Shown here in pieces: positions 318 to 41,129 of a stretch of 41,129 nt of DNA (positions within the stretch are counted from its first letter, which is position 1; each line of letters begins with the position of its first letter). Under the pieces are notes generated by a model, which saw only the letters and a list, made by a program, of their open reading frames with translations, was not told where the DNA came from and ran no database searches. This stretch comes from Escherichia phage vB_EcoS_P1338. The DNA is taken from the sequence record PP882707.1; one strand, 5' to 3'. The position numbers and the translations under genes were made by a program.

Positions 318-566
318 CTAAGCGCCAATGAGCAGTCTAAGGAACACAAGTGAGTAGAGAACAAAGCAGAGTCTCCAGTTCACCGATGTGTTCAGCACTA
401 GATGCGAGACCAATGGAAGCAGCAAGTACAACGAGAAATTTGTAAGTCGTTCGATGCGTTGCCAGTGTCTTAAGCACGGATAGTAAGCGCATAGAGCGTC
501 CTCCTTGTTATACTTGATGGTTACACTGATAGTGGGGATGTAATTACTATTACTATCATCCCTCAC
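318..566 (-). CDS. hypothetical small protein at the T7 gene 19.5 position (GTG start, hydrophobic C-terminus)
   Basis: 82-aa ORF downstream of the right-end T7-type promoter; no in-frame ATG and only a weak RBS, so coding status is uncertain. Confidence 0.25.
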   Translation of the reverse strand: MRDDSNSNYIPTISVTIKYNKEDALCAYYPCLRHWQRIERLTNFSLYLLLPLVSHLVLNTSVNWRLCFVLYSLVFLRLLIGA

Positions 567-649: not shown

Positions 650-672
650 CTTCCCAATAGTGAGTCGTATTA
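650..672 (-). promoter_or_regulatory. T7-type promoter (phiOR-like)
   Basis: minus strand reads TAATACGACTCACTATTGGGAAG. Confidence 0.8.
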
Positions 673-737
673 GGAACACCCTTGATTTCATTAGGTTTTT
701 ATACCTCACTCTAAGGGTGTCCATTGTGCATATTGAG

Positions 738-1184
738 TCACTTTAAGTGCATATTGAGTCTACCAGACCTAGCCTTCTTGACCCACTGGATGTTTAAACC
801 AAGTCTCTTAGCGACCTCAGCATCTGAGCCATCAGCATCAAGCACAGCCTTTAGTCGTTTCTCAAATGACTCTTGGAGCCTCTCTGTAAGACTTCGGCGC
901 TTACCTGTAAACCCTCCACGAACCATGCGGCCTTTCGCCCTACAGTCCTCTATGTTCTCTTTCTGTGTTCCCTCAGATAAATGCTCAGGATTTACACACG
1001 AAGGGTTATCACATGAGTGCATTACCACACATCCTTCCTTTAATGGGCGCTTCAGGTGGACGTGCAGGGCGTATCTATGGGCCATCCAATGGACACCATT
1101 AACACGAATCCTGCCATAACCACCTTTAGTCTTGCACCCTTGGAAGATGTGGCAACCAGTTACATTATCGATTACCACTCTCAT
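738..1184 (-). CDS. HNH endonuclease (free-standing homing-endonuclease-like), C-terminal helix-turn-helix-like tail
   Basis: 148 aa; ATG preceded by AGGAGG; motifs GYGRI...H...MHSCDNPSCVNPEHL typical of HNH nucleases; sits immediately after the large terminase gene. Confidence 0.8.
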   Translation of the reverse strand: MRVVIDNVTGCHIFQGCKTKGGYGRIRVNGVHWMAHRYALHVHLKRPLKEGCVVMHSCDNPSCVNPEHLSEGTQKENIEDCRAKGRMVRGGFTGKRRSLTERLQESFEKRLKAVLDADGSDAEVAKRLGLNIQWVKKARSGRLNMHLK

Positions 1185-1205
1185 TACATACCTCCTACTT
1201 ATCTA

Positions 1206-2966
1206 TTACCACTCAATGAAGCAGCTAGAGTCTCCGTCGTCCTCGTAGTAGATGTCCACGCCACCAACATCGTAGCTATGGATAGCATCACCACCAATGG
1301 TCTGTTTCTCCATGTGGTGTTCAAGGAACTCAAGGGTCATCTCTTCTTCACCTACACGGCTGTCCACAAGCATCCCTTCACGCAGGAACTCGATACCCAA
1401 TGCGATAGCATCAAGTCGGTCATCATGTGCCACAGCGCCTCGCTCACGGGTCATACGGGTCATCTGATAGAACGCACTATAGCGAACATCATGTTTCCCA
1501 TCAAGGTCACGAGCAGTCTGGTAGTCCTCACGGATAACCTCATCACGAATGACCAGCTTGTGTGCACCCATCAACGGTTCGATAGTATCGCAGATTCGCA
1601 TCTCCTTCATGCCTTTAGCACGGATTTCCTCTAAGGCACACTTGTGGTGCTTCAGGAGAATCGGAGAGAAAATCTTACCGAACATACCGTCACCGAAGTT
1701 GGACTCGTGGACTACTGTCTGTACCTTCCACTGCTTGGCCTTCTTAGCGAGCTTCTCTAGGGTAGCATCTTCGTAACCACCACGGAACCCACCGACTTCC
1801 ATCAAGTAGATATAACCGTTAAGTGAGTATAGTACTGCATACCCGGTCTCATCCTTACCACGACCACTTGGGTCAATGACCAGAATCTTAGACTGATACT
1901 CAGCGGTACGAGAAGAGCACGTATGGAACGCATGGATGTCATCACCCTTCAGACCAACGTTAGGAAGTTCCTCATTGCGGTTCTGACGGTTCGGCAACCA
2001 CTGGTAAGACAATGGGGCACGTTCAGGGTCCACAGCGCACACGATAGCGTCACGGAGGCGTAGCGGGTACTTCTCGGCATCACTAAGGTTCGGGTTAAGC
2101 ATGAACTGAAGCGTGTATCCAGCTTTACCATATTCGAGTTCACGTTCACGGAGGTCATCCATGTCGAATCGAACAGGGTCAGTAGGTTGACCACGAAGTA
2201 ACTCAAAGCCCTCATCATATTCAGCCTTAAGCATCGGAGCCAATCGGTCCCCATAGTAGAGAGCCTCAGCGTCATTACGTGGATACTGTGCTGGCCAGAT
2301 TACTGTGCTGTACCCTTTGTTATCCTCAAGTTCCTTATAGAGAGTCATCTCGGTTTGAGGTGTACCAAGGTAGATAACACGAGAGGTAGGCAGTGGCTTA
2401 AGTAACGCAGCAAACTCAGTTACCAACGTCCAGAGCTTCTCACGGGCAGAACTCGTAGAGCTATTACCGGGAACCTCAACGTCATCTGCAATGATGATGT
2501 CAGCACGGCTACCAGTTAACTGACCAGTGATACCCACAGACTTCACAGAGGGTGAGTGGTCTGGTTTCGCCAAGCCAACGTCGAAGCTAATCACAGAGTC
2601 ACGCTGTCCCGGTCGAGGTTTCAACTCAGAGAGGAACGGTAAGAGGTCGATGATGTTCTTGATGAAGATGGAGTTAGCATCCGCACGTTCCTTAGAGGCA
2701 GACACGATGAGCACCTTAAGTTGAGGGTCACGCCATAAGACCCACACGACGAACGCACAGGTGATAAAGGACTTGCCGATACCACGGAACGCCTGAAGGA
2801 TAAACTTCTTGTGGTCGCCGTTAGCGAGTGTACGTGCCATATCAATCTGACACTTGGTTGGTTTAGGTAAGTTAAGAGCCTTCCATAAGACGAACAAGAA
2901 AGCGACAAAATCACCCTTAAGTTGCGCAATGATTAACGCATTCTTAGCTTCTTGGGATTGTGACAT
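1206..2966 (-). CDS. gp19: terminase large subunit (DNA packaging protein B)
   Basis: 586 aa, same length as T7 gp19 and near-identical over long stretches by recollection ([19 protein letters not shown]..., [11 protein letters not shown]...); start overlaps the stop of the upstream spanin gene (ATGA). Confidence 0.97.
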
Positions 2967-3979: not shown

Positions 3980-4099
3980 AAAACCTCCAGTTTAAAAGCG
4001 GGTCGTCCGTGACCCAGAGTTGTTACCATACGTTGGTCAGCGTGTAGTTAGCCTCTACCTCCACAACCTTCGATGACTCAATACCATTCTACTGATAAA

Positions 4100-4121
4100 C
4101 TAACCCGCCGAAACGGGTTTT
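4100..4121. terminator. short GC hairpin (AACCCG-loop-CGGGTT) just downstream of gene 17; T-rich flank is on the plus strand
   Basis: perfect 6-bp inverted repeat; on the coding (minus) strand the U-tract is weak, on the plus strand it is followed by TTTTGTTGTT. Confidence 0.25.
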
Positions 4122-4133
4122 GTTGTTATAGTA

Positions 4134-6845
4134 TTAATCAGCGTAAAGCATTAAGAACATAATAAGCTCTTCATAACGGATTCCATACCGTACACCGGCT
4201 GGTTTGGTTACTACAACCCTTTCTAGCGTTTCCGGGTTAATGTTTACTTCAGTAGATTCTTCCCATACATCCTTACACCAGAATGCATAATCCTCTGGAT
4301 TAAGTCCATGTTTAGTAAGAATAGAGCCGACCGTTTGAGCACCAACACCGAAGTGAATACGTGCAGATGCTCCCCCCTTAAGTTCTATAGCGTCAGTAAA
4401 CTTGTAGCGAATAATATTCTTACGAATTTCATTAGCCGCATCTCTTTCCGCACTCTCATTCACTGCTGGGGTTTTTTTCTTCAGTGTTTCATCGGAAGTA
4501 ACAATGGTGCTTGAAGCAGCATAAACAGCACTCCACCTGTGGCCTGCATACCCCAGCACTGTAGAGTTATCGGCAGCAGGTAAAATAGCATTATACCCTT
4601 CAATAATGAGGTCACCATTAGGGCTACCAGAAAACGATTTACCATCATAACTAGTAAGGGTGATTCCCTTAGTGCCCTCAGTAGTTGTTAACATAATACC
4701 AGCATTGGTAGCACCCAAGAGCTGAATATCACTATTATCATTACGCAAATCCTGCACAGGTGCTTCAAGTACAGTTGACGTGAATTTCCATTTCGTATCA
4801 GAAAAAAGTTCGACCGGTTGCACGTCATCCTTCTGGTACATCATGGCTTTAACACCGGAAGTTTTACGTCTTACACCGATGGCGTTTGGTTGTGAGCCAG
4901 ACCAGTTAGATGAGAAGGTAAATCCATCAAATTCCACTACAGACTCATAAGGATTGCTGGTATCGTTATTGATTGGTTCTGTAATAAAAATCCATCCCCA
5001 GTCGAAATAGTTATTATAAGTCCCTACGTTAGCATCTATCTGATACGCACGGGTGCACACCTCCCCATAGTAACCGTAGAATCTCAGGTTCCCGGCAACT
5101 TGTGAGTCTGAGCTTACGGTTTTAACCACACGCACACCACACGGTACATCTGCTGGTCCAGTTGTTTTGGTTATATTCTCACAAGAACCACCAAACACAC
5201 GAAGTGAGTCCGTGCTTTCAATCCAGAACGCACAGTTTCCCGTTACGTGAATTGGGTTGTAAATAGTGATTCTGGTGTTGTTGTTGTCGCCTGAAACACT
5301 CCGGTTGAATCTAAACCCGCAGTCAACGTTTTCAAATACTGGATTTTTTATGGTGTGATAATATGCAGCACTATTAGCCCCAAAAACTGTTGGTCCCGGT
5401 TGCAGTAACACCCCTACAGAGACGTCTGTCGCTTTTGGGTTGTTTAGCTGACAAAACTGTTGCGATACACGTGCAGTAGTTTGTGTGAGGTCTTCCGGGC
5501 TTATTGCGTATGCCACTACTTTTGTGAAACCATCTGGATTTATTACCGCAGGGTTAGTTACGATGCAGAAATCATGGCTCATTCTTAAGCATGTGATGCC
5601 AGAAGCTCCCGCTACGATTGTTGTTCCGGTGAAATCAATATACCTTGTAGACGTAACATCCTGCGTATACGAGCCATCGAATTTCATTACAAGACTTTGT
5701 GTTATGCGATATCTCGCACCTACTCTTCCTGTTAATTTACCAAACGGCACAATCTCCAACCACGACAATGCCGCCAGCATCGCGGAGGTATCATTATTTA
5801 TCCCGTCGCCAATAGCACCGAACTCTTCAAATGACTTTACTGTCGTAGCCCGATGAGCAATCTGGTCAATTGTTGCACCATGCTTTGTTAGATCAGTTCT
5901 AATAGACGCATCACCAACACTAACCCACTTCCCTAATCCAATCCCACCGGAAGTTTCAGGAGTTGAACCAGCAGGGATGTTCTTTGGAAGCGTACCATCC
6001 CAGCGGTAATACTCACCCTCCTCTTCCCACAGTAGTACCTCGTTCCAGGTTATAACGTTGAAGCCTTTCTCGAAGGAGCGACGGGTAACATATCCAATTC
6101 GAGCAGATGCCTTGATACTCTCAGCGATTCGTCGTGCTTCATCCTCGCTATCCTTAGCGTTGCCAGCATAGCTACCAGCAGATGCTGCATATTGTCCAGA
6201 AGTATTCTTGAACTGCTCGGCTTCATTCCGGAATTCATTAGCCTCATCGCGCCATTGCTTTGCGTTCGTAGCGTGGGTGCTGGACTCGTTCTTAAAGCCC
6301 TCCGCTTTATTTCTGAAAGTCTCAGCCTCATTGCGGAACTGTAGGGCCTCATTACGTGCCTGCCATGAGTTCTGGTTCATGGTCTTAAGTTGACCAAACG
6401 GAACAGCGTCTAGGTCATCCACGGCGTTCGCTAGGTTCACGATACGACGACCACGTGCATCCAAGTGACCATCATTATTGACCCCAATGGTATCCGCAGT
6501 TAGGTCTCGTGCTTCTTCAGCAACGTGAAGCGTTTGAATCTGTGCAATGTTCAGGTCATATGCGCGAAGGATTGAGCCATCAGCAAAGTCAACCAGACGG
6601 TCTGTCGCGGAGGTGAAACGACGAATCTCAATGGAGTAATATCCATCAGCAGCCGTCCATGCACGAGTTGTAGTGATTTGTGTCTTAGTGGTGAACCGAT
6701 AGTCCTGATTTAGAACCAGTTCCTTACGGTCTTTACCAATTAGAGTTACCGTCACAAACTTACGCGCTAAGTATTCAAAGGTGATTGCAAAGTCCACAGC
6801 ACCTGTTAGCGGATAAGTCATTACGGTACGAATTTTAAGAGCCAT
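4134..6845 (-). CDS. gp17: tail fiber / tailspike: T7 gp17-like N-terminal anchor, beta-helix depolymerase-like central domain, C-terminal intramolecular chaperone-like domain
   Basis: 903 aa; first ~200 aa align with remembered T7 gp17 (FEYLARKF, RLVDFADGSILRAYDLN, VNNDGHLDARGRRIVNLANAVDD); from ~aa 335 FEEFGAIGDGINNDTSAMLAAL (pectate-lyase-type motif); near aa 784 SDETLKKK resembling the Ser-Lys autocleavage motif of tailspike C-terminal chaperones. Confidence 0.9.
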   Translation of the reverse strand: MALKIRTVMTYPLTGAVDFAITFEYLARKFVTVTLIGKDRKELVLNQDYRFTTKTQITTTRAWTAADGYYSIEIRRFTSATDRLVDFADGSILRAYDLNIAQIQTLHVAEEARDLTADTIGVNNDGHLDARGRRIVNLANAVDDLDAVPFGQLKTMNQNSWQARNEALQFRNEAETFRNKAEGFKNESSTHATNAKQWRDEANEFRNEAEQFKNTSGQYAASAGSYAGNAKDSEDEARRIAESIKASARIGYVTRRSFEKGFNVITWNEVLLWEEEGEYYRWDGTLPKNIPAGSTPETSGGIGLGKWVSVGDASIRTDLTKHGATIDQIAHRATTVKSFEEFGAIGDGINNDTSAMLAALSWLEIVPFGKLTGRVGARYRITQSLVMKFDGSYTQDVTSTRYIDFTGTTIVAGASGITCLRMSHDFCIVTNPAVINPDGFTKVVAYAISPEDLTQTTARVSQQFCQLNNPKATDVSVGVLLQPGPTVFGANSAAYYHTIKNPVFENVDCGFRFNRSVSGDNNNTRITIYNPIHVTGNCAFWIESTDSLRVFGGSCENITKTTGPADVPCGVRVVKTVSSDSQVAGNLRFYGYYGEVCTRAYQIDANVGTYNNYFDWGWIFITEPINNDTSNPYESVVEFDGFTFSSNWSGSQPNAIGVRRKTSGVKAMMYQKDDVQPVELFSDTKWKFTSTVLEAPVQDLRNDNSDIQLLGATNAGIMLTTTEGTKGITLTSYDGKSFSGSPNGDLIIEGYNAILPAADNSTVLGYAGHRWSAVYAASSTIVTSDETLKKKTPAVNESAERDAANEIRKNIIRYKFTDAIELKGGASARIHFGVGAQTVGSILTKHGLNPEDYAFWCKDVWEESTEVNINPETLERVVVTKPAGVRYGIRYEELIMFLMLYAD

Positions 6846-13787: not shown

Positions 13788-14198
13788 TTAACCTCCTATT
13801 GTGAATAATTGGAATTGATTACTGTCACCAGTAAACTCATTGTGGAATACCGCACCGATAGACTTTAAGAACCTAATGTGGGACTTATTGCCTAGCCATA
13901 CATAGTTCCAGATTACTGGATACTGTTTCAGCATTGTATCGCGGTACTCTAGAATGAGCTTGCGGAACTCCTTACGTGACTTCAGACTTAATCTCCATAC
14001 TTCAGCGGACGTTACGAACCACACTTGGTCCCCACGGTTTCCACCAATAGCCACAGGAATCCCATGAAGAGACATAGTGACACACTCAGAGGCTGGTGGG
14101 AATGACGGTTCAATGCCATAGGCGTGTGCCTCAGCTACGTCTTCTGGAGATGGTTCGAATAATTTAAAGTCTCTTTCTGTTGTTGGTCGGATAATCAT
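13788..14198 (-). CDS. gp13: internal virion / head assembly protein
   Basis: 136 aa; MIIRPTTERDFKLFEP...GIEPSFP...ASECVT...WFVTS matches remembered T7 gp13. Confidence 0.85.
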   Translation of the reverse strand: MIIRPTTERDFKLFEPSPEDVAEAHAYGIEPSFPPASECVTMSLHGIPVAIGGNRGDQVWFVTSAEVWRLSLKSRKEFRKLILEYRDTMLKQYPVIWNYVWLGNKSHIRFLKSIGAVFHNEFTGDSNQFQLFTIGG

Positions 14199-14225
14199 AG
14201 AGTTTCTCTCCTATAGTATAAACCC

Positions 14226-14248
14226 CTTCCCAATAGTGAGTCGTATTG
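14226..14248 (-). promoter_or_regulatory. T7-type promoter upstream of gene 13 (phi13)
   Basis: minus strand CAATACGACTCACTATTGGGAAG. Confidence 0.8.
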
Positions 14249-23940: not shown

Positions 23941-24233
23941 TACTTCACCTCACGAATAGTTGCAGGTGCAAACTTAATGCCCTCTCCGTGGTGCTCAATG
24001 CCCATCTCACGGATTTCATTACGAATGCCCTGCTTAACAGCAAAGGCAACAACACCATCGGCACCATGAGTAAGAGCCTGTACGAGTAACTCTTTGTCCT
24101 GTGCACTTACGGACTCACCATCACGAACGCTGCGGGCCAAATCCAAGATGCGTTCCTTAATCATATCTTCAGTCTCAGAGTCAACCTTTACGGTCATTTC
24201 GAATGATACTTTAAAACGTTTAGTAATAGCCAT
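23940..24233 (-). CDS. gp5.5: small protein at the T7 gene 5.5 position (H-NS binding in T7)
   Basis: 97 aa; KRFKVSFEMTVK...PATIREV resembles remembered T7 gp5.5. Confidence 0.8.
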   Translation of the reverse strand: MAITKRFKVSFEMTVKVDSETEDMIKERILDLARSVRDGESVSAQDKELLVQALTHGADGVVAFAVKQGIRNEIREMGIEHHGEGIKFAPATIREVK

Positions 24234-24555
24234 GATATTTCTCCTTTGCTTCTAAGGTGATGACCTTCCGTTCTCGGTTAGTCTTGATTATATGTTCCCT
24301 CTTAGGGATACATTGTAGGTGCTCTATGTTACAGCACCCGCGATTCAGGCATAGATGGTCTATCTCATACCCTTCTGGTATCTTTCCGTGCCTTAACTCC
24401 CACACGAATCTGTGAAACATAAAGGCAAACTTAGTACCCTTTCGGGAAGACCCTATGCTATACCGGAAGTATCCATCTTGGTTCCGCTTATGGGAGACGC
24501 AGACAATACATCCAGTCGGCATAGTGTGAAACCTGAGCGTGGCAACGCCTCCCAT
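24220..24555 (-). CDS. gp5.3: HNH endonuclease at the T7 gene 5.3 position
   Basis: track ORF 24220..24585 trimmed to the ATG preceded by AAGGAGG; motifs CIVCVSH...GYFRY...EIDHLCLNRGCCNIEHL. Confidence 0.85.
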   Translation of the reverse strand: MGGVATLRFHTMPTGCIVCVSHKRNQDGYFRYSIGSSRKGTKFAFMFHRFVWELRHGKIPEGYEIDHLCLNRGCCNIEHLQCIPKREHIIKTNRERKVITLEAKEKYHGYY

Positions 24556-24566
24556 AGTATACCTCC

Positions 24567-26681
24567 TTAGTGACATACCGCCCAATTCGGACCCATCTTT
24601 CCTTCAGTATCTAACTGACACCGGAAGTTAAAGTGGTCGCCTACCCAACGCATAGCCTGTTGAGATACTTCGATTACAACTTTGGCAATCTCTTCTGTAC
24701 GGCAAGCAAGCTGTTGCTCATCATGAATCCATCCCATAAGGCAGAAGTCACCATCCCATCCGTGTTTGTAGCCCATCTCAAGGAGCATCTCTTCTGTCTC
24801 AACAATCCACAGTTTACAAATCAGAGCACCAGCAGACTGCAACAAGGTGTTCAACGCAGCGTGAGGACTACGGACGTGTACTTTACGACCATCCAAGCCA
24901 CGAACCCAACGGCGCTTCCAAGTTACTTTCTGTTCGCCACCAACCCACTTGGAGTCCTTGACGAGTGTCCCTGTGATTGCTTCACGTAACGCAGCGATAG
25001 CCGGAGTTTGCTCAAGGAAGTTCTTGATGAGTCGCTTACCATCTTCGGCAGTGCCACCAACAATCTGTCCAATCTTCGCAGCACCAGCACCATAGAGGAA
25101 CCCATAGATAAACGTCTTAGCATTATCACGAGTAGGCAGACCAGCAGCCAATTGGTTCTTCGTATGGATGTCACCAGTGAGGATAGTCTCAACGTACTCA
25201 CCCTCATCATAACGATACATGAAGTGGCCCAAGCAACGTAGCTCAAGGCCGGACGCATCCACACCAACTTGAATCCAAGGGTCTGGCTTACCGTCTTTCA
25301 TGTTGTGCTCGGCACCGAAAGCAGCACGGCAAGGTTCACCATAAGCAGCACGGATTGAAGGCACCTGTGCCACGTTAGGGAAACTATGGGTTGCACGACC
25401 AGTTACCGCACCGTTCGGGTTAACGCTTCCGTGAATACGACCATCGTCTCCAATCATTCGGAGCCATCCGTTATCACCTTCAGCAACCTGACCAATACGC
25501 TTCTGAATCATAAGGTATTCTTTAATTAACTCAATGCAACGTTGTGCATCAGGGTCGTCTACCTTAACGTGCTCTAAGACCTCATCGTCTACCTTTGGTG
25601 CACCACTAGGAGTGAACTCAACGGGAACCCAGCCAGCCTTGGTGAGAACACGAGTGATGTGGTCTCGGCTCGCAGGGTTAAACACAACGTGCTCAACCGG
25701 AGTATACGGAGCACCCTCAACGTAATCGCGGGTATCCAACTCACACGGTTCTAAGCCTTCACGTTGCTTCTTGTTCTTAGGCTTCTTAAAGATGCCACCC
25801 TGTTTCGGATACTTCACACGAGGATACTTGGTGAGCGGCTTTCCGGTACGAGGATGCCTGAATGCTTCAGTACCGCCCTTAGCGGAGTACCATGAGCCAA
25901 ACGTATTGGTTAACTCTACGAGTAGCTCACCACGTCTGCCAGCGAGTTCTGCGTAGAGATTCTCCAAGGACTTGATGTCAATAGGAAAACCGTTACGTTC
26001 CATCTTAGCTAACAACCATGCAGCATCATGTTCCAGTTTGACAGCCTCAAGGCTACCATTCCAGAAACGGTCTGCTTCTGTGCTTCCAGCGGGTGTCTCG
26101 TTAGGGAAATAGAAAGTGTTACTACACAGTTTCTCAAAGAGTGCCTTGGTGACTACAACGTCTTGAACGTTATATTCCATCATGTCTTCGTTGAAGAACA
26201 GCCACTCCATCCCGTCTTCGTATTCATCACCAGACTCTTCCAGTGACTTCTTAAAGTCGTCCTTGTACTCACCCTTCATTTCACCCAAGCGGTAGCCCCA
26301 TGCTTCCAGAGCGTGAGACCCAAAGCGTTGACCTGGTAGCTTGCCAGCACGAAGCAGACCAGCATCGGTGTCTTTGATGTTAGAGTAAATCAGTCGGGAC
26401 ATCACTAAGGTGTCCAAGACGTTCTCTTTCGGGAACTTAACGTCACGATTAAGAATCAGCTTTGCCAGCTTCTCGATAACCGGAACGTCATACTTGTGCC
26501 CGTTGTGAAACACAATGAGACCACCGCGAGCAACCTCAGCTTCGAGTGCATCAATGTATGCCCCAAAGTCATCAGGTCGATAACGGATGTACTGGTCAGT
26601 TGTGTAGTCGTAAGTCACCGCACAGTGAAATTGACTAACGTTGTGCAGCAACCCGTTTGTTTCGATGTCGGATAGTAACAT
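24567..26681 (-). CDS. gp5: DNA polymerase (family A) with 3'-5' exonuclease domain
   Basis: 704 aa, same length as T7 gp5; conserved blocks recognisable along the whole protein. Confidence 0.98.
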   Translation of the reverse strand: MLLSDIETNGLLHNVSQFHCAVTYDYTTDQYIRYRPDDFGAYIDALEAEVARGGLIVFHNGHKYDVPVIEKLAKLILNRDVKFPKENVLDTLVMSRLIYSNIKDTDAGLLRAGKLPGQRFGSHALEAWGYRLGEMKGEYKDDFKKSLEESGDEYEDGMEWLFFNEDMMEYNVQDVVVTKALFEKLCSNTFYFPNETPAGSTEADRFWNGSLEAVKLEHDAAWLLAKMERNGFPIDIKSLENLYAELAGRRGELLVELTNTFGSWYSAKGGTEAFRHPRTGKPLTKYPRVKYPKQGGIFKKPKNKKQREGLEPCELDTRDYVEGAPYTPVEHVVFNPASRDHITRVLTKAGWVPVEFTPSGAPKVDDEVLEHVKVDDPDAQRCIELIKEYLMIQKRIGQVAEGDNGWLRMIGDDGRIHGSVNPNGAVTGRATHSFPNVAQVPSIRAAYGEPCRAAFGAEHNMKDGKPDPWIQVGVDASGLELRCLGHFMYRYDEGEYVETILTGDIHTKNQLAAGLPTRDNAKTFIYGFLYGAGAAKIGQIVGGTAEDGKRLIKNFLEQTPAIAALREAITGTLVKDSKWVGGEQKVTWKRRWVRGLDGRKVHVRSPHAALNTLLQSAGALICKLWIVETEEMLLEMGYKHGWDGDFCLMGWIHDEQQLACRTEEIAKVVIEVSQQAMRWVGDHFNFRCQLDTEGKMGPNWAVCH

Positions 26682-27110: not shown

Positions 27111-27150
27111 AGTGTTGTTCTCCCATTAGTTAGTTGAATAGATTTCATAC

Positions 27151-27200
27151 AAAAGTTAATCACGAAGGCCACCATTAAGATGACCTTTAGTTTAACTCTT
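27151..27200 (-). promoter_or_regulatory. conserved 50-nt hairpin element before gene 4.7, candidate RNase III site (R4.7-like); copy 1 of a 50-bp direct repeat
   Basis: aaaagttaatcacgaaggccaccattaagatgacctttagtttaactctt; imperfect long stem with internal loop; second copy at 34101..34150 differs at 1 nt. Confidence 0.55.
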
Positions 27201-32594: not shown

Positions 32595-32602
32595 TTAATT
32601 AC

Positions 32603-33097
32603 TTATAGCTCCAATAGAAGTTTGTTGCGCGCTGCTACAGCCTCGTCAAGTGACTTATGATATGAAACATAACGTCTGCCAAACTTCCTAATTGAGACGG
32701 TGTAGAGGTTCCTATCCTGTCTCTTGTTTATATGCTTAAGTCCCAGCTTGTTAGTACAGTAGGTACCTTTGTTCTGGTTATTCTCAGCACTTGTTACCAC
32801 TCTAAGATTCTCTATAAGGTTGTTCTGCTTGTTCCTGTCAATATGGTCTACCTGTAAACCATCTGGTATAGGTCCATTGGTCAGTTCCCACACTACTCGA
32901 TGGACTCTCAAGTGATGGGCCTTTCCTTCCACTCTGACAGTCAAAGTCCAATATCCAGTTTTCTTTAGAGAACCAACAGGCTTACCATCTAGGCGAGAGA
33001 GGCCACTAGGAGCCTCCCTGTTAACCTTAAATCTTTTCGCTACGATTTCCCTCAACCCCTCTGAAGCAGGTGAAGGAGGGATGTCTAAGGCTCCCAT
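32603..33097 (-). CDS. HNH endonuclease with C-terminal AP2-like DNA-binding domain
   Basis: 164 aa; GGAGG RBS; HHLRVHRVVWE...VDHIDRNKQNNLIENLRVVTSAENNQNK (HNH) followed by YTVSIRKFGRRYVSYHKSLDEAVAARNK (AP2-like); start overlaps the last ~70 nt of the ligase gene. Confidence 0.85.
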   Translation of the reverse strand: MGALDIPPSPASEGLREIVAKRFKVNREAPSGLSRLDGKPVGSLKKTGYWTLTVRVEGKAHHLRVHRVVWELTNGPIPDGLQVDHIDRNKQNNLIENLRVVTSAENNQNKGTYCTNKLGLKHINKRQDRNLYTVSIRKFGRRYVSYHKSLDEAVAARNKLLLEL

Positions 33098-34061
33098 CTT
33101 TTGTTTCCTCCATGTAGTTTACTTGGCACTGCCAGCCCTCATAAGGATTGACCCCACCGAGGATATATGTGTCAGTGTTACAGGCTTCCGTGAACTCATC
33201 CATCAACGCTTGGCTGATATTGTTAGCGGAGACTACGCGACCGGACTCTAAGAGAACCTCGAAGCCAATCACTTTGCCTTCATTAGCGAGACCTTTAGTC
33301 CCCCAATTGAGTCCAACGATAATACCGTCAGCTTCATTCTCAGGCTTCATCTTCCACCAGCCAGACTTCTTGCCACGCTTGTAGACTTCCAGCGGGTCTT
33401 TGACGACCAGACCTTCATGACCATCGGCACGGGCTTTCTCGTAGAGTTCCTGAAGTTCTACCATGTCGTAGACTTCCTTGGCTTCAGAGAGTTCCCAAGT
33501 GATTTCCGGGAAGTGTTCACTAAGAACCGGAATGAGGGAACGCACATGCTCTTGCATCAGGAGGGACATAACGCCATACTCTTTGCCTTCTACCATATCG
33601 TGATACGGCATAGCAGCATACAGAACAACCTTAAGTTTCTTAGGGTCTAAGCGGAAGTCTACTTTACTCCCCTTGAGAGGCTCTACTCCACCAATATCAA
33701 ATCCACAATTTGTCTTCTTGAGCCACTTGGTACGCAGTAGGCCAGACCCTGTGTTGAAGTCTACGCCTTTGACCATCAGTTCACCATCCAGCATGAAGCC
33801 ATCAGGGAAAATCCAGCGGTCATCTTTGAGAACATTAGCCCAGCGTTGGTCGAACCCATTAAGGTGCTCAAGCGCGGGGATGGTCTTAGAGACACGGGAC
33901 AGCCACAGGCAGTCAGCCGTATTGTCAACCACGATGTTACCACGCACACCATCATGCTTAGTGTCAGCAATCAGGTAGCCAGCTTTGTCGAGTGCTTTCT
34001 TAATGGCAGACTCAACGTAGGATACAGCTTTAAAAGGGTTAGTCTTGAATGTGATTTCCAT
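33027..34061 (-). CDS. gp1.3: ATP-dependent DNA ligase
   Basis: 344 aa; adenylation motif KHDGVRG; TNPFKAVSYVESAIKKALDKAGYLIA...HEGLVVKDP...GKKSGWWKMKPENEADG matches T7 ligase by recollection. Confidence 0.95.
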   Translation of the reverse strand: MEITFKTNPFKAVSYVESAIKKALDKAGYLIADTKHDGVRGNIVVDNTADCLWLSRVSKTIPALEHLNGFDQRWANVLKDDRWIFPDGFMLDGELMVKGVDFNTGSGLLRTKWLKKTNCGFDIGGVEPLKGSKVDFRLDPKKLKVVLYAAMPYHDMVEGKEYGVMSLLMQEHVRSLIPVLSEHFPEITWELSEAKEVYDMVELQELYEKARADGHEGLVVKDPLEVYKRGKKSGWWKMKPENEADGIIVGLNWGTKGLANEGKVIGFEVLLESGRVVSANNISQALMDEFTEACNTDTYILGGVNPYEGWQCQVNYMEETKDGSLRHPSFTCFRGVEGNRSEKI

Positions 34062-34100
34062 GATGGAACTCCTTTAGTGTGTGTCGGTTATTAAGTAATC

Positions 34101-34150
34101 AAAAGTTAATCACAAAGGCCACCATTAAGATGACCTTTAGTTTAACTCTT
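34101..34150 (-). promoter_or_regulatory. conserved 50-nt hairpin element in the ligase leader, candidate RNase III site (R1.3-like); copy 2 of the 50-bp repeat
   Basis: aaaagttaatcacaaaggccaccattaagatgacctttagtttaactctt, 49/50 identical to 27151..27200. Confidence 0.55.
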
Positions 34151-34171
34151 TCGCAATAGTGAGTCGTATTA
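34149..34171 (-). promoter_or_regulatory. T7-type promoter upstream of the ligase gene (phi1.3-like)
   Basis: minus strand TAATACGACTCACTATTGCGAAA; overlaps the gene 1.2 stop. Confidence 0.75.
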
Positions 34172-34441
34172 CTTCCAGTGCTTCATATCACTGTGAACCT
34201 TGCGGAGCCATTCAGTCTGTGCATTACAGCGAACGTCTTCGTCTGACTGTTCGAAACACTTAGCGGTCAGCATTAAGCCATTCCGTAAGACCACTCGAAG
34301 TGTCTCTCCTGCGACCATTCGTCGCTGTGCGAAGTCCTCATAACGATAAGTCTCAACGACCACATTTGCATCGTGGTCTTCTTTAAGTCTCTCGATAGCG
34401 TCTTTGTATGCCATTAAGTTACCACTGTATAAGCGACCCAT
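34169..34441 (-). CDS. gp1.2: small protein at the T7 gene 1.2 position (dGTPase inhibitor in T7)
   Basis: 90 aa; MGRLYSGNL N-terminus and C-terminal WK as in remembered T7 gp1.2. Confidence 0.85.
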   Translation of the reverse strand: MGRLYSGNLMAYKDAIERLKEDHDANVVVETYRYEDFAQRRMVAGETLRVVLRNGLMLTAKCFEQSDEDVRCNAQTEWLRKVHSDMKHWK

Positions 34442-38491: not shown

Positions 38492-38525
38492 TAGATTGTG
38501 TCCTATTTAGTTAAACTTTAAGAGA
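38476..38525 (-). repeat. copy 1 of a repeated translation-initiation cassette (leader + ATG + first codons) heading gene 0.7
   Basis: core cattagattgtgtcctatttagtt shared with 38769..38792 and 38951..38974; extended ~50-nt match to the copy at 38938..38992 including codons MNYTD. Confidence 0.8.
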
Positions 38526-38570
38526 TAGAGAGAAGAGTGTTAATGTGGTTAACTTCAATAATCTTGATTT

Positions 38571-38771
38571 TCACCTTACAATCTCTGCGTCCAATACTGA
38601 TACTCTAACTAATATCCCAGCGCCATTTTTAACTATGAATCCGTCTGAATTTGGCGCTATTTCAAAAACAAAATATTCTTCACCTGATTTAAGTAAGTAT
38701 TCATCAATATCAATTCTAGGTTTATTATTTCTTGGTTTGAATTTAATAAATAGCGGTCGTTCGTTAATCAT
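38571..38771 (-). CDS. hypothetical 66-aa protein, strongly AT-rich gene headed by cassette copy 2
   Basis: MINERPLFIKFKPRNNKPRIDIDEYLLKSGEEYFVFEIAPNSDGFIVKNGAGILVRVSVLDAEIVR; about 32 percent G+C by hand count against roughly 50 percent for the flanking genes. Confidence 0.55.
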   Translation of the reverse strand: MINERPLFIKFKPRNNKPRIDIDEYLLKSGEEYFVFEIAPNSDGFIVKNGAGILVRVSVLDAEIVR

Positions 38772-38800
38772 TAGATTGTGTCCTATTTAGTTTAAGAAAG
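38769..38800 (-). repeat. copy 2 of the repeated translation-initiation cassette
   Basis: cattagattgtgtcctatttagtt followed by a divergent leader. Confidence 0.8.
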
Positions 38801-38953
38801 AGAATTGAGGATTAAACGCGCTTCTTTACATGCCTTTGCTACCTTTCTGGCGGGTATCCTCTTCAGGTGCAATGCCTTCATTAGAGTCTCGTTGGTAGCA
38901 CCATATGCCAGTGTGTACAGAACTTTCTTAGTTAAACTATCGGTGTAGTTCAT
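38792..38953 (-). CDS. hypothetical 53-aa protein headed by cassette copy 3, sharing the MNYTD start of gp0.7
   Basis: hand-derived ORF MNYTDSLTKKVLYTLAYGATNETLMKALHLKRIPARKVAKACKEARLILNSLS; first 15 coding nt identical to gene 0.7. Confidence 0.4.
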   Translation of the reverse strand: MNYTDSLTKKVLYTLAYGATNETLMKALHLKRIPARKVAKACKEARLILNSLS

Positions 38954-38992
38954 TAGATTGTGTCCTATTTAGTTAGTTAAACTTTAAGAGAG
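38938..38992 (-). repeat. copy 3 of the repeated translation-initiation cassette
   Basis: gtgtagttcattagattgtgtcctatttagttagttaaactttaagagag; differs from copy 1 by a 4-nt insertion. Confidence 0.8.
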
Positions 38993-39247
38993 AGCGTTCA
39001 ATGTATTGGTTAATGCTTGCTCGAGTGCTGCGAGCTTCTGCGCTTTTAGCTTGGCCTTTCGTCTATGCCATGCAGCCCGCTCCTGTTCCTTGCGCCTTTC
39101 TAGGTTGTTCTCGCGCCAAGTTCTCACGATACGCCTATTTGCTGCATTGAGTGTGCCATTAGACCTATAGCCTTTCTTCAGCGCTTTATTCTGCGCCCCT
39201 GCGTCCAGAGCGTGTACCAAGTTTGCGGCGTTAATGTGTTGCAACAT
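38984..39247 (-). CDS. hypothetical basic, Ala/Lys/Arg-rich early protein
   Basis: track ORF 38984..39256 (GTG) trimmed to the first ATG; GGTAGGTG Shine-Dalgarno-like; 87 aa. Confidence 0.5.
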   Translation of the reverse strand: MLQHINAANLVHALDAGAQNKALKKGYRSNGTLNAANRRIVRTWRENNLERRKEQERAAWHRRKAKLKAQKLAALEQALTNTLNALS

Positions 39248-39428
39248 AGAAGACACCTACCTTGTTAGCCTTAAAGCGCCCGTTGCGTTCACGGACTGTG
39301 AATCGTGGTAGAAAGCCATACTTCAGGTGCGAGAAGTTAGCCTTGTGTACCTTGAGACCCTTTGTGAAGTCCTTCAGGAAGTACAGCGTGATTAGAGTGT
39401 AAACGAGTGCGACAAATACGTATAACAT
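39231..39428 (-). CDS. hypothetical 65-aa early protein with N-terminal transmembrane helix
   Basis: ATG preceded by AAGGTG; MLYVFVALVYTLITLYFL hydrophobic start; overlaps neighbouring ORFs in other frames. Confidence 0.45.
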   Translation of the reverse strand: MLYVFVALVYTLITLYFLKDFTKGLKVHKANFSHLKYGFLPRFTVRERNGRFKANKVGVFYVATH

Positions 39429-39564
39429 GTGGTGTCACCTTATAGAGTGCAAAGAGAGTTATTAATAGTGCGACGATGCCTAAGTTTGTGATGCCTGTGA
39501 TGTGCTTAGAGCCGCCTGTTACCTGCCATCCTGTGAAGAACCATCCAGACCAGTTAGTGAACAT
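39337..39564 (-). CDS. hypothetical 75-aa early protein with a central hydrophobic segment
   Basis: ATG inside the gene 0.4 3' end with GAGGA 9 nt upstream; ITNLGIVALLITLFALY hydrophobic stretch; 3' third overlaps the next ORF. Confidence 0.45.
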   Translation of the reverse strand: MFTNWSGWFFTGWQVTGGSKHITGITNLGIVALLITLFALYKVTPHVIRICRTRLHSNHAVLPEGLHKGSQGTQG

Positions 39565-39727
39565 TTAGTTTGTCCTCATCATTGTCAAGTGCAATTGCTT
39601 TGTTGTTGTCGTACAGTTCTTTTAGCTGGGCCATTGCGAGTCCCCAATCGAACCCGCAACGCACCATGTCACTATAGAACAATACAGTTTGAGCGGTCAG
39701 ACCGTATTGCGTGGTGTTGTTAGCCAT
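39554..39727 (-). CDS. gp0.4: gp0.4-like small protein (FtsZ inhibitor in T7)
   Basis: 57-aa ORF found by hand (under the track's 60-aa cut-off): [47 protein letters not shown]..., close to remembered T7 gp0.4; ATG overlaps the Ocr stop (TAATG). Confidence 0.75.
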   Translation of the reverse strand: MANNTTQYGLTAQTVLFYSDMVRCGFDWGLAMAQLKELYDNNKAIALDNDEDKLNVH

Positions 39728-40080
39728 TACTCTCCATCCTCCTCGTACTCTTCGACTTCCTCAAGATACTCGTTCAGTAAGTCTTCTGCGTCCTCCCAAA
39801 TGTCGATTGTGAGTTGCTCATAGATACGCGCTTGCAGGATACGGATAACGTCTTTGGTGTCCGGCATCAGACCAGAGTCTTCGAACTCAAGGTCAATGCC
39901 TTCGCTTGCCATTACACTGAAAATGTCGCTGTAGTAGTGCGGAACAGCATTATCAGCCACCATATGCACTGCATCGTGCAGGTCATCAGCGTCACGAATG
40001 TCATCATAACGGATGTTTTCTTTCAGCATTTCGTAAGCGTGGTCGAAAACGTTGTGATAAGTCATGTTAGACATAGCCAT
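39727..40080 (-). CDS. gp0.3: Ocr, DNA-mimic anti-restriction protein (inhibits type I R-M; also BREX in T7)
   Basis: 117 aa, same length as T7 Ocr and near-identical by recollection (MAMSNMTY...[44 protein letters not shown]). Confidence 0.95.
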
Positions 40081-40104
40081 TGTGTGTTACCTCATTGTGT
40101 GTGA

Positions 40105-40160
40105 TTAGTAGTGAATATCATAAAGGGCACCTTGCGATACCCTTGAGTTATCCGCTACGT
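40105..40160 (-). promoter_or_regulatory. RNase III processing site upstream of gene 0.3 (R0.3-like)
   Basis: minus strand TAGCGGATAACTCAAGGGTATCGCAAGGTGCCCTTTATGATATTCACTA matches the remembered T7 R0.3 region almost base for base. Confidence 0.7.
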
Positions 40161-40426
40161 GTGTACACTCAGTTACCGTGTCAACGATGTCGCCACACTC
40201 TACCATAACAACCATTCTTATGGTCTAAGGAATTACGGCGGGTTTTGTATGTCAGTTTTACTTTCATGGTAGTTCCTATTTTGTAGGTTTGCCTTACAGA
40301 CTACTTTGATTTGTTTACCGTGTCTGCATACTCCAGTAAACGGTGCTATCCGTAGCGAGTATCCGGCAGGTTTCGCAGTTCCTATCCGTTCTCTCTTTTT
40401 GCTGACTCGTTGTCAGCTTGTGGTAC

Positions 40427-40455
40427 ATCGTACCGTGTTTACTGCATGTTGTCAA
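40427..40455 (-). promoter_or_regulatory. host sigma70 early promoter A3
   Basis: minus strand TTGACA-17 nt-TACGAT within GGTTGACAACATGCAGTAAACACGGTACGATGTACC, near-identical to remembered T7 A3. Confidence 0.8.
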
Positions 40456-40551
40456 CCATCTTGTTTCGCTTTGTGTGCCGTGGTGCGCTTAAGTCACCTA
40501 GAAGACACCGTGCTCCAGTGTTGACGTTACTAGTGTTACCTAGCGTTGTGT

Positions 40552-40581
40552 ATCTTACTACATGTTACTTCGTGTTGTCAA
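40552..40581 (-). promoter_or_regulatory. host sigma70 early promoter A2
   Basis: minus strand AAAAACAGGCATTGACAACACGAAGTAACATGTAGTAAGAT, -35 TTGACA and -10 TAAGAT as in remembered T7 A2. Confidence 0.8.
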
Positions 40582-40678
40582 TGCCTGTTTTTCGTATGAC
40601 TTATCAGGCTGTCTACTTGACCACTTGACTAGTGGCATCTCAGCTATCCGGTGTTACCGTGTCGCCTTGATGTGATGA

Positions 40679-40706
40679 ATAATACACTATCTAATCTTAG
40701 AGTCAA
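40679..40706 (-). promoter_or_regulatory. host sigma70 early promoter A1
   Basis: minus strand TTGACT-16 nt-TATTAT. Confidence 0.65.
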
Positions 40707-40791
40707 TACTTAAAGTAACAAATAGTCGTCTTTAAGTAGTCTTTAAGTTATCCCTATAAGGAAGGGAATAGTAATAAGACTATAAACAACC

Positions 40792-40814
40792 ATTCCCAAT
40801 AGTGAGTCGCATTA
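40792..40814 (-). promoter_or_regulatory. T7-type promoter at the phage left end (phiOL-like)
   Basis: minus strand TAATGCGACTCACTATTGGGAAT. Confidence 0.7.
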
Positions 40815-40839
40815 GCTGTATGGTCTTTAAGGCTGGTCT

Positions 40840-41129
40840 AATAGTGGTAACGATAGGTGTCTATAGACTGAAGGCACCGACTGAAGGTTAACATAAGGAG
40901 AGGCAGCCATAAGGATAGACATAAGGTTAGCGTAGCTAATAAGAGGTGACATAAGGTGTTAACTCTAAGAGGAAACATAAGGTGATTACAGATAGGGACA
41001 CAGAGAGGACTACATATAGTGGTCATAATGTCCCCCCACACACCATATCTAGTGGTAACACCCAAAGTTAACCCAATGTCTCACATAAGGTTAGCGGAGC
41101 TAACAAGGATTGACATTAAGTGAACCATA
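40840..41129. repeat. array of short direct repeats (ACATAAGG units) at the phage left end, including a block resembling the T7 left terminal region
   Basis: acataagg recurs at least six times; minus-strand GGGTGTTACC...CTCTCTGTGTCCCTATCTGT matches remembered T7 left-end sequence. Confidence 0.45.

Follow-up and report, generated by a model that had tools for sequence, protein, structure and literature searches.

A probable homing endonuclease gene of the HNH_3 family between gene 19 and the phiOR-type promoter of a Berlinvirus

A small HNH gene located directly after gene 19 has been annotated in GenBank for several phages, appearing as gene 19.4 in 13a, as 'gp7.7 homolog' ('7.7') in Yepe2, as ORF42 in Berlin and as bas67_0006, a 'putative homing endonuclease', in ErnstBeyeler, with further orthologues annotated in Yep-phi, BP12A and PP74. 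The gene described here is a new allele of this already known element and is ordinary in itself. It is carried by a 41,129-nucleotide stretch of DNA from Escherichia phage vB_EcoS_P1338 (sequence record PP882707.1), which was analysed at its full length and is hereafter called the window. The annotated orthologues are 52-88% identical to the window protein at the amino acid level and resemble it in their position directly after gene 19, their length of 144-156 amino acids, the combination of an HNH_3 domain with a helix-turn-helix (HTH) and the presence of the same junctions. Unlike them, the window allele adjoins a gene 19 whose 3' end best matches HNH-less phages. The literature on this clade, covering Yepe2, Berlin, Yep-phi and gene 7.7, yielded no cleavage or homing experiment, and a recent preprint on the GAPS4 defence deals with other T7 enzymes.

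I-HmuI from phage SPO1 is a site-specific nicking enzyme. Based on structural modeling, the window protein would share with I-HmuI (PDB ID: 1U3E) an N-terminal HNH nuclease, an extended linker and a C-terminal HTH, however, sequence identity is only about 20%, I-HmuI is intron-encoded while the window gene is free-standing and intergenic, and the window protein possesses a Cys/His zinc site as found in I-PpoI. The catalytic histidine, the metal-binding asparagine and three zinc ligands of I-PpoI, an enzyme of the His-Cys box type, align residue by residue with the window protein. I-PpoI differs in being a homodimeric eukaryotic nuclear intron enzyme lacking an HTH, and its match to the window protein is weak (E = 0.1-0.17).

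T7 itself encodes three HNH-type genes, namely 2.8, 3.8 and 7.7, and the closest T7 homologues of the window protein are gp7.7 (40% identity over 99 amino acids) and gp2.8 (32% over 129 amino acids). These are likewise products of small, non-essential and intergenic HNH genes of T7-group genomes, however, they are found at different positions, after gene 7.3 and after gene 2.5, respectively, and the tblastn match to gp7.7 stops short of the C-terminal region of the window protein. The reported anti-GAPS4 activity concerns T7 gp3.8 and the triple deletion, as opposed to gp7.7 or gp2.8 singly. A further point of comparison are HK97 gp74-type proteins, which are also small HNH proteins encoded next to a terminase gene and near a genome end. 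They differ with respect to Pfam family, terminase family and the type of genome end, and the window gene is not conserved in close relatives.

The locus and its predicted protein

The window represents a T7-group genome in reverse orientation and was assigned to the genus Berlinvirus by Megablast, with P151, WW1, JSS1, BA14 and ErnstBeyeler being about 90-92% identical to it over 25 kb. The HNH (His-Me finger) endonuclease gene is found at 738..1184 on the minus strand, starts with ATG and encodes 148 amino acids, an assignment based on the open reading frame, profile searches and a structural model. It follows gene 19 (1206..2966, minus strand) on the same strand after a gap of 21 nucleotides. 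Gene 19 encodes a T7-type large terminase subunit, identified through its Pfam domains and its nature as a conserved flank, and its stop codon occupies 1206-1208. Read on the minus strand, the sequence upstream of the HNH gene is TAA TAGATAAGT AGGAGG TATGTA ATG, where AGGAGG (1191..1196, minus strand) represents a Shine-Dalgarno sequence located 6 nucleotides before the start codon. On the other side, about 65 nucleotides separate the HNH stop codon from a phiOR-type phage RNA polymerase promoter, TAATACGACTCACTATTGGGAAG (650..672, minus strand), one of 7 copies in the window. This promoter is part of the conserved flank common to genomes with and without the HNH gene, and its counterpart is annotated as phiOR in Yepe2 and BA14. 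The next gene after the promoter is a gene 19.5 homologue (346..486, minus strand; 47% identity to T7 gp19.5). An earlier note on this DNA, made from the sequence alone, had described a 148-residue HNH protein with a strong AGGAGG ribosome binding site between gene 19 and the right-end promoter, and all of these elements were confirmed.

The interval between gene 19 and the HNH open reading frame was scanned and contains no phage promoter, no sigma-70-like promoter and no intrinsic terminator. The HNH gene would therefore be read on the late gene 19 transcript, and it is most likely translated from this read-through transcript. The region around its ribosome binding site is free of unusual structure (z +1.3). 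A stem-loop, GGACACCCUU...AAGGGUGUUCC (674..722, minus strand), immediately precedes the promoter within the 3' untranslated segment of the cassette. Its predicted folding energy is -20.4 kcal/mol (z -2.4), and its sequence is conserved in HNH-carrying Berlinviruses.

The HNH domain proposed in the earlier note was detected by both Pfam and PHROG. The 148-residue protein matches Pfam HNH_3 (PF13392) with E = 5.9e-7 and 29.5 bits, compared to a gathering cut-off of 24.8 bits, and zf-His_Me_endon was obtained as a weak second Pfam match. PHROG 6254 ('HNH endonuclease') matches it from end to end (E = 1.4e-58), and the PADLOC 'HEase' (homing-endonuclease) model also matches the protein (E = 9e-6). 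The classical HNH Pfam model did not match, HNH_3 being found instead, an NCBIfam search returned no match, and nothing was found when the PDB was searched with the single protein sequence. A profile search of the PDB gave weak matches to I-PpoI and to HTH proteins. In the former, residues 35-81 are aligned with I-PpoI, with H56, C58, C63, H68 and N77 corresponding to I-PpoI H98, C100, C105, H110 and N119. In I-PpoI, these residues represent the general base (H98), the three ligands of the first zinc site (C100, C105 and H110) and the metal-binding asparagine (N119). Across 38 homologues, C11, G22-Y23-G24, H36, H56, C58, D59, N60, P61, C63, N65, P66, H68 and L69 are invariant, while N77 is nearly so, being present in at least 90% of them. 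We propose H56, N65 and N77 together with C11, C58, C63 and H68 as the catalytic and zinc residues of the protein.

An AlphaFold model generated from the alignment has a mean pLDDT of 85.6 and contains two strands (53-56 and 69-72) followed by a helix (74-83). Fold searches with this model returned I-HmuI (1U3E) as the best PDB match over the full length (probability 1.00, E = 3.9e-4), with I-PpoI in second place. The three C-terminal helices, at about residues 99-141, match HTH domains of the Fis, TrpR and XRE types, homologues of the protein carry precomputed Pfam HTH_23 or HTH_3 assignments, and pLDDT drops below 50 at residues 90-92, in the linker. The modeled architecture is a His-Me nuclease with a zinc site (residues 1 to about 85), a flexible linker and a three-helix C-terminal HTH at about residues 99-141, a predicted domain order known from proven site-specific homing enzymes. 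The protein lies above the HNH_3 profile threshold, and in the model a general-base histidine and a metal-binding asparagine would form part of a beta-beta-alpha-metal motif, accompanied by a structural zinc site.

The location of the gene, adjoining that of the large terminase and close to the genome end, raises the question of whether its product could instead be an HK97 gp74-like packaging factor on which the adjacent terminase would depend to form genome ends. HNH genes beside terminase genes are described as a known packaging theme in PMC3592412, and the summary of Kala et al. 2014 given in PMC8861465 describes the same theme of HNH genes next to terminase genes, linking the packaging role to long-tailed phages whose large terminase belongs to Terminase_1. 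The gene 19 product of the window is, however, T7-type, containing Terminase-T7_RNaseH-like (E = 8.5e-40) and Terminase_6N and no other Pfam domain; the HNH protein matches HNH_3 and not the classical model; and relatives are annotated with direct terminal repeats, not cos ends. Further, the gene is missing in T7 and in most Berlinviruses with a 99% identical terminase, and the viable phage fPS-9 has a disrupted copy. Given the wrong terminase family and a gene that can be dispensed with in T7, empty Berlinviruses and fPS-9, a packaging role was rejected as extremely improbable.

Distribution and the two alleles of the gene 19-phiOR interval

In total, 80 loci encoding gene 19 relatives and three annotated records were each scored for the HNH gene. 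At the Berlinvirus level, defined by a gene 19 protein at least 93% identical to that of the window, 6 of 16 genomes (the window and 15 loci) carry the gene and 10 lack it. The carriers are ErnstBeyeler, Yepe2, Yep-phi, BP12A, PP74 and the window, while P151 and the loci L004-L010, L013 and L014 do not contain it. Among loci with a gene 19 protein of about 80% identity, the gene is present in 6 T7-group loci (orthologues 52-55% identical) and one Helsettvirus locus (69%), and absent from T7 and about 60 other loci. In T7, no gene lies between the end of gene 19 (39130) and phiOR (39229), in agreement with the earlier note. Absence of the gene extends to many close relatives, even those whose gene 19 is most similar, namely P151, L004 and L005, which are 99% identical to the window at the 3' end of gene 19. 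In every carrier, the HNH gene starts 14-56 nucleotides after gene 19. At the DNA level, the cassette was matched in 106 phage records and the gene 19 region in 880.

The best match to the HNH protein in a collection of 5.8 billion proteins is a metagenomic homologue with 91% amino acid identity, encoded directly after a T7-type terminase gene and before an open reading frame the size of gene 19.5. With 91% being the best amino acid match, the donor of the window allele is not in the databases. Scanning again from the HNH alignment split the homologues cleanly: each of those with 52% identity or more directly follows gene 19, and no gene 19 is found in the 2.5 kb preceding any of those with 50% or less. 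What looked like a shortened copy in AKS2021HT58GU was discarded, as the match is merely split over the start of a circular record.

Alignment with HNH-less Berlinviruses shows a replacement: an allele-specific cassette of about 523 nucleotides (673..1195, minus strand) stands in place of about 78 nucleotides of empty sequence starting TGCGGGAAAGGTGCATAGG. The gene 19 stop codon and TAGATAAGTA are common to both alleles. In the window, the 5' junction is found 10 nucleotides past the gene 19 stop codon, after the shared TAATAGATAAGTA, and at the 3' junction the two alleles converge again precisely where the phiOR-type promoter begins. T7-group loci have their 5' junction at an equivalent point, where TGATTTATG is followed by CATTAGGACTGCAT in empty loci and by AGGCCAAGGAAGGCC...AAGGAGG...ATG in carriers. 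Based on comparison with empty alleles, the 5' junctions are located 6-10 nucleotides past the gene 19 stop codon in both the Berlinvirus and the T7 group. In two Helsettvirus loci, for which carrier alleles were compared, the ribosome binding site follows the gene 19 stop codon after 3 nucleotides.

How sharply the two alleles are bounded was assessed by counting alignment columns in which 7 HNH-carrying and 10 HNH-less Berlinvirus-level genomes share no state. No such column exists in the last 600 nucleotides of gene 19 (600 columns, 161 variable) or in phiOR plus the following 330 nucleotides (466 columns, 287 variable), compared to 26 of the 92 columns (71 variable) in the interval itself, where the last 88 nucleotides of the HNH-carrying allele were aligned with the empty allele. 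Thus, only the interval tracks whether a genome carries the gene, a pattern that frequent recombination in the flanks would produce. Any site making carriers immune and non-carriers sensitive should likewise lie in the interval.

On its 3' side, final codons of the open reading frame included, the cassette retains weak homology to the empty allele. A 28-nucleotide stretch in PP74 resembles the empty allele with a score reached by 14 of 2000 shuffles, and for a 24-nucleotide promoter-proximal stretch common to the cassette and P151 the score was reached by 5-17 of 2000. This weak homology is suggestive of an insertion near the 5' end of the ancestral interval. The 5' junction, AGATAAGTA, also resembles the 3' end of the open reading frame (AGACTCAATA / AAACTAAGTA). 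A target-site duplication was not accepted, the likeness being significant for some pairs only and thus held to be suggestive.

These observations can also be read as a passive 'moron' cassette, that is, two old alleles of the interval shuffled by ordinary recombination, with the nuclease having another job or none. The cassette is bracketed by a very conserved gene 19 3' end and a very conserved promoter, the sequence of the empty allele is also conserved between divergent Berlinviruses, and the weak 3' homology just described points the same way. Further, a compositional test for foreign origin revealed no anomaly in GC or GC3, the GC content of the cassette (47.4%) being fully matched to that of the genome (47.9%). 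We nevertheless consider this explanation very unlikely. It accounts less well for a conserved catalytic site, given the low dN/dS and the lack of any variation at catalytic and zinc residues, and the predicted architecture is that of proven homing enzymes. In addition, the three HNH_3 genes of the window are clean indels at different intergenic sites, which is the usual pattern of homing endonucleases.

The two other HNH genes, noticed earlier from the sequence and now assigned to HNH_3 as well, are located between gene 5 and gene 5.5 (24220-24555, E = 6.9e-18) and between the ligase gene and gene 1.6 (32603-33097, E = 5e-21; closest T7 relative gp3.8). Compared with P151, ErnstBeyeler, Berlin and BA14, both represent clean indels. 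Their products are distantly related to the HNH protein encoded beside gene 19. Recent duplication among the HNH genes of the window was rejected, with 38% identity over 47 amino acids for one pair and no significant match for the other. These four relatives have nuclease genes at other locations: P151 has one between genes 3 and 3.5, BA14 has one preceding gene 5, and in Berlin a nuclease gene interrupts the split DNA polymerase gene. The proposal that the HNH genes of this phage occupy a different set of positions from those of T7 holds in both directions: according to tblastn, the T7 positions of 2.8, 3.8 and 7.7 are all vacant in the window, and T7 has no HNH gene at any of the three positions used there.

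History, selection and decay of the HNH gene

The cassette and its flanks have different histories. In its last 300 nucleotides, gene 19 of the window is 99% identical to the insert-free P151, L004 and L005, and 84-95% identical to carriers in phage databases. The HNH gene reaches at most 88.6% nucleotide identity to any phage record, and its product at most 88% identity to any phage-record protein. Between the window and L085, dS is 0.25 for the HNH gene and 0.033 for the last 100 codons of gene 19; between Yepe2 (L003) and PP74 (L081), the values are 1.00 for the HNH gene and 0.22 for the whole of gene 19. Yep-phi (L011) and L085 differ in the reverse direction, with 0.225 for the HNH gene and 0.42 for the whole of gene 19. 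The discordance in both directions means that cassette and gene 19 do not have one common genealogy. HNH orthologue identity to the window is 52-55% in the T7 group, 69% in Helsettvirus and 68-91% in Berlinvirus, and this divergence, in partly tracking genus, suggests long vertical residence with occasional exchange.

All 28 pairwise comparisons of the HNH gene give dN/dS ratios of 0.09-0.27, indicating that the protein has been maintained by purifying selection. For a purely selfish element, purifying selection requires ongoing homing or a benefit to the phage. In Yersinia phage fPS-9, an internal deletion of 86 nucleotides removes the VMHTCDNP...KEN catalytic block and shifts the frame, with the rest of the locus being nearly identical to that of the intact fPS-59. 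Given a viable phage with a dead copy and the many empty genomes, the HNH gene is dispensable. Together, the intact, decayed and empty states fit the known life cycle of homing genes.

Purifying selection would also be compatible with a protein useful to its carrier, either by cutting co-infecting competitors or by binding to DNA ends or breaks and thereby weakening host defences that sense breaks, such as GAPS4, independently of catalysis, with spreading being secondary or absent. The competitor-cutting version implies cuts near the packaging or right-end region, leading to interference competition and marker exclusion. In a 2025 preprint, catalytically dead T7 gp3.8 relieved GAPS4 defence, wild-type T7 outcompeted a mutant lacking 2.8, 3.8 and 7.7 only under active GAPS4, and the Bas24 HNH enzyme (Bas24_0090) blocked related phages only if catalytically active (10.1101/2025.09.07.674715). 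The closest T7 relatives of the window protein, gp7.7 and gp2.8, are among the products removed in that mutant, however, the results concern other proteins, neither of these two was assayed singly and the GAPS4 effect was mild in the phage context (10.1101/2025.09.07.674715). Moreover, any benefit must be conditional, since the gene is absent from most relatives and decayed in fPS-9. We regard benefit as the main reason for the gene's presence as unlikely; such roles are compatible with homing and would plausibly add to it instead of replacing it.

A proposed homing cycle and its implications

Taken together, we consider it probable that the gene represents a free-standing, I-HmuI-like HNH_3 homing endonuclease gene residing at a lineage-specific site between gene 19 and phiOR of T7-group phages. 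It combines a presence/absence polymorphism, one insertion point and a genealogy discordant with its flanks with a predicted nuclease and DNA-binding HTH. In the proposed cycle, the AGGAGG of the gene would allow late translation of the enzyme from the transcript that reads through from gene 19. The C-terminal HTH and the linker may then place the N-terminal nuclease on a long asymmetric site in the genome of a co-infecting insert-free phage. This target would most likely be found in or beside the empty interval of about 78 nucleotides just after the gene 19 stop codon, because it is the only segment differing consistently between carriers and non-carriers. After nicking or cutting at the empty-allele site, T7-type recombination could repair the break from the HNH-carrying genome, with the 3' end of gene 19 and the phiOR promoter serving as homology arms, and repair would copy the cassette into the insert-free genome.

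It should be noted that ordinary recombination between the conserved flanks would give the same distribution without any endonuclease drive. The GC content of the cassette, equal to that of the genome, likewise carries no compositional sign of recent foreign origin. The earlier note had suggested a homing endonuclease that invaded the packaging module. Its homing component now has comparative evidence for mobility, however, 'invaded' is too strong a term, as repeated recombination of two old alleles fits equally well.

The region between the terminase gene and phiOR plays a part in T7 concatemer processing and packaging as well as in the secondary initiation of replication. The location of the HNH gene may therefore be more than coincidence: the enzyme could conceivably target the corresponding interval of insert-free competitors and act as a packaging-site-directed interference weapon, possibly also masking DNA ends against break-sensing defences, though we view this extension as quite unlikely. 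If true, a carrier would disable the genome maturation of a co-infecting competitor while converting the survivors.

The window adds one more allele to a known family of optional HNH genes located after gene 19 in phages of the Berlin, T7 and Helsett groups. It also highlights a clean natural system in which two sharply bounded alleles, about 523 nucleotides with the gene and about 78 nucleotides without it, are found between conserved flanks, narrowing the candidate target to an interval of about 90 nucleotides. As this system is found in easily grown coliphages, members of the BASEL collection among them, it would lend itself well to quantifying homing and marker exclusion, along with the anti-defence side-benefits recently proposed for homing endonucleases of phages. 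The locus is also relevant to genome annotation and phage engineering, as phages can do without the gene and its position points to a site that tolerates insertions.

Borders and decay of the gene 19-side HNH cassette

Between the stop codon of the gene 19-side HNH gene (738-1184, minus strand) and the phiOR-type promoter lies a minus-strand hairpin, GGACACCCUU...AAGGGUGUUCC (674-722), with a 10-bp stem and a large loop (-20.4 kcal/mol, z -2.4). Most Berlinviruses carrying the HNH gene keep this hairpin, which the empty allele lacks. It could serve as a processing or pause signal in the RNA, or belong to the immunity sequence of the cassette.

The cassette borders were also compared among T7-group loci containing the HNH gene (L021, L025, L027, L031, L032 and L035), covering ~5-60 nt after gene 19 and the surroundings of phiOR. 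In 13a-like carriers, a GC hairpin (AGGCCAAGGAAGGCC) opens the cassette 5' of the ribosome binding site. On the promoter side, the co-inherited tract is longer in these T7-group carriers than in Berlinvirus, because the HNH-containing haplotype takes in a variant phiOR promoter (TAATTCGACTCACTATAGGGAGAAG) as well as a deletion of ~48 nt located downstream of it.

A decayed copy is found in Yersinia phage fPS-9 (LT960606.1, 37696-38059), where the HNH orthologue is annotated as two ORFs, g049 and g050. An 86-nt deletion splits the gene and takes out the catalytic HNH motif, while the HNH gene of the sister phage fPS-59 is intact.

Further HNH_3 genes and the DNA polymerase gene

The window encodes two other HNH_3 genes, both on the minus strand: the gene at 24220-24555 separates gene 5 from gene 5.5, and that at 32603-33097 is flanked by the ligase gene and gene 1.6. 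Each represents a clean presence/absence indel relative to the Berlinviruses P151, ErnstBeyeler, Berlin and BA14, with segments 24246-24566 and ~32597-33189 finding no match in these four genomes. Neither gene stems from a recent duplication of the HNH gene beside gene 19. As the end of the ligase ORF (33027) and the 32603-33097 ORF overlap by ~70 nt, the true start of the latter may be located further downstream.

The DNA polymerase gene of Yersinia phage Berlin (NC_008694.1, 12124-14918) carries an annotation as a join of two segments enclosing an endonuclease VII ORF (13798-14232), which looks like an intron-type insertion. In contrast, the DNA polymerase gene of the window (24567-26681) is uninterrupted and lacks this insertion.

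Repeats and divergent regions

Two copies of a 51-nt direct repeat (98% identical) are located 6950 nt apart at 27150-27200 and 34100-34150, one of them adjoining a promoter copy at 34146-34190. The repeat includes a short hairpin-like motif (AAGGTCATCTTAATGGTGGCCTT, minus strand) and may represent a recurring element for RNA processing or regulation.

With a length of 41129 nt, the window exceeds related genomes by 0.6-2.6 kb. In its early (left-end) region, 38505-39314 and ~39381-40862 match none of the four Berlinvirus comparators at the nucleotide level. Imperfect 40-nt repeats are present at 40919-40958 and 41083-41122. Most of a tail-fibre-sized gene (4134-6845, minus strand, 903 aa) is likewise without nucleotide match (3980-6513) in these comparators and T7. 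This suggests that the receptor-binding region has been swapped, so that host range would differ from that of the closest relatives.
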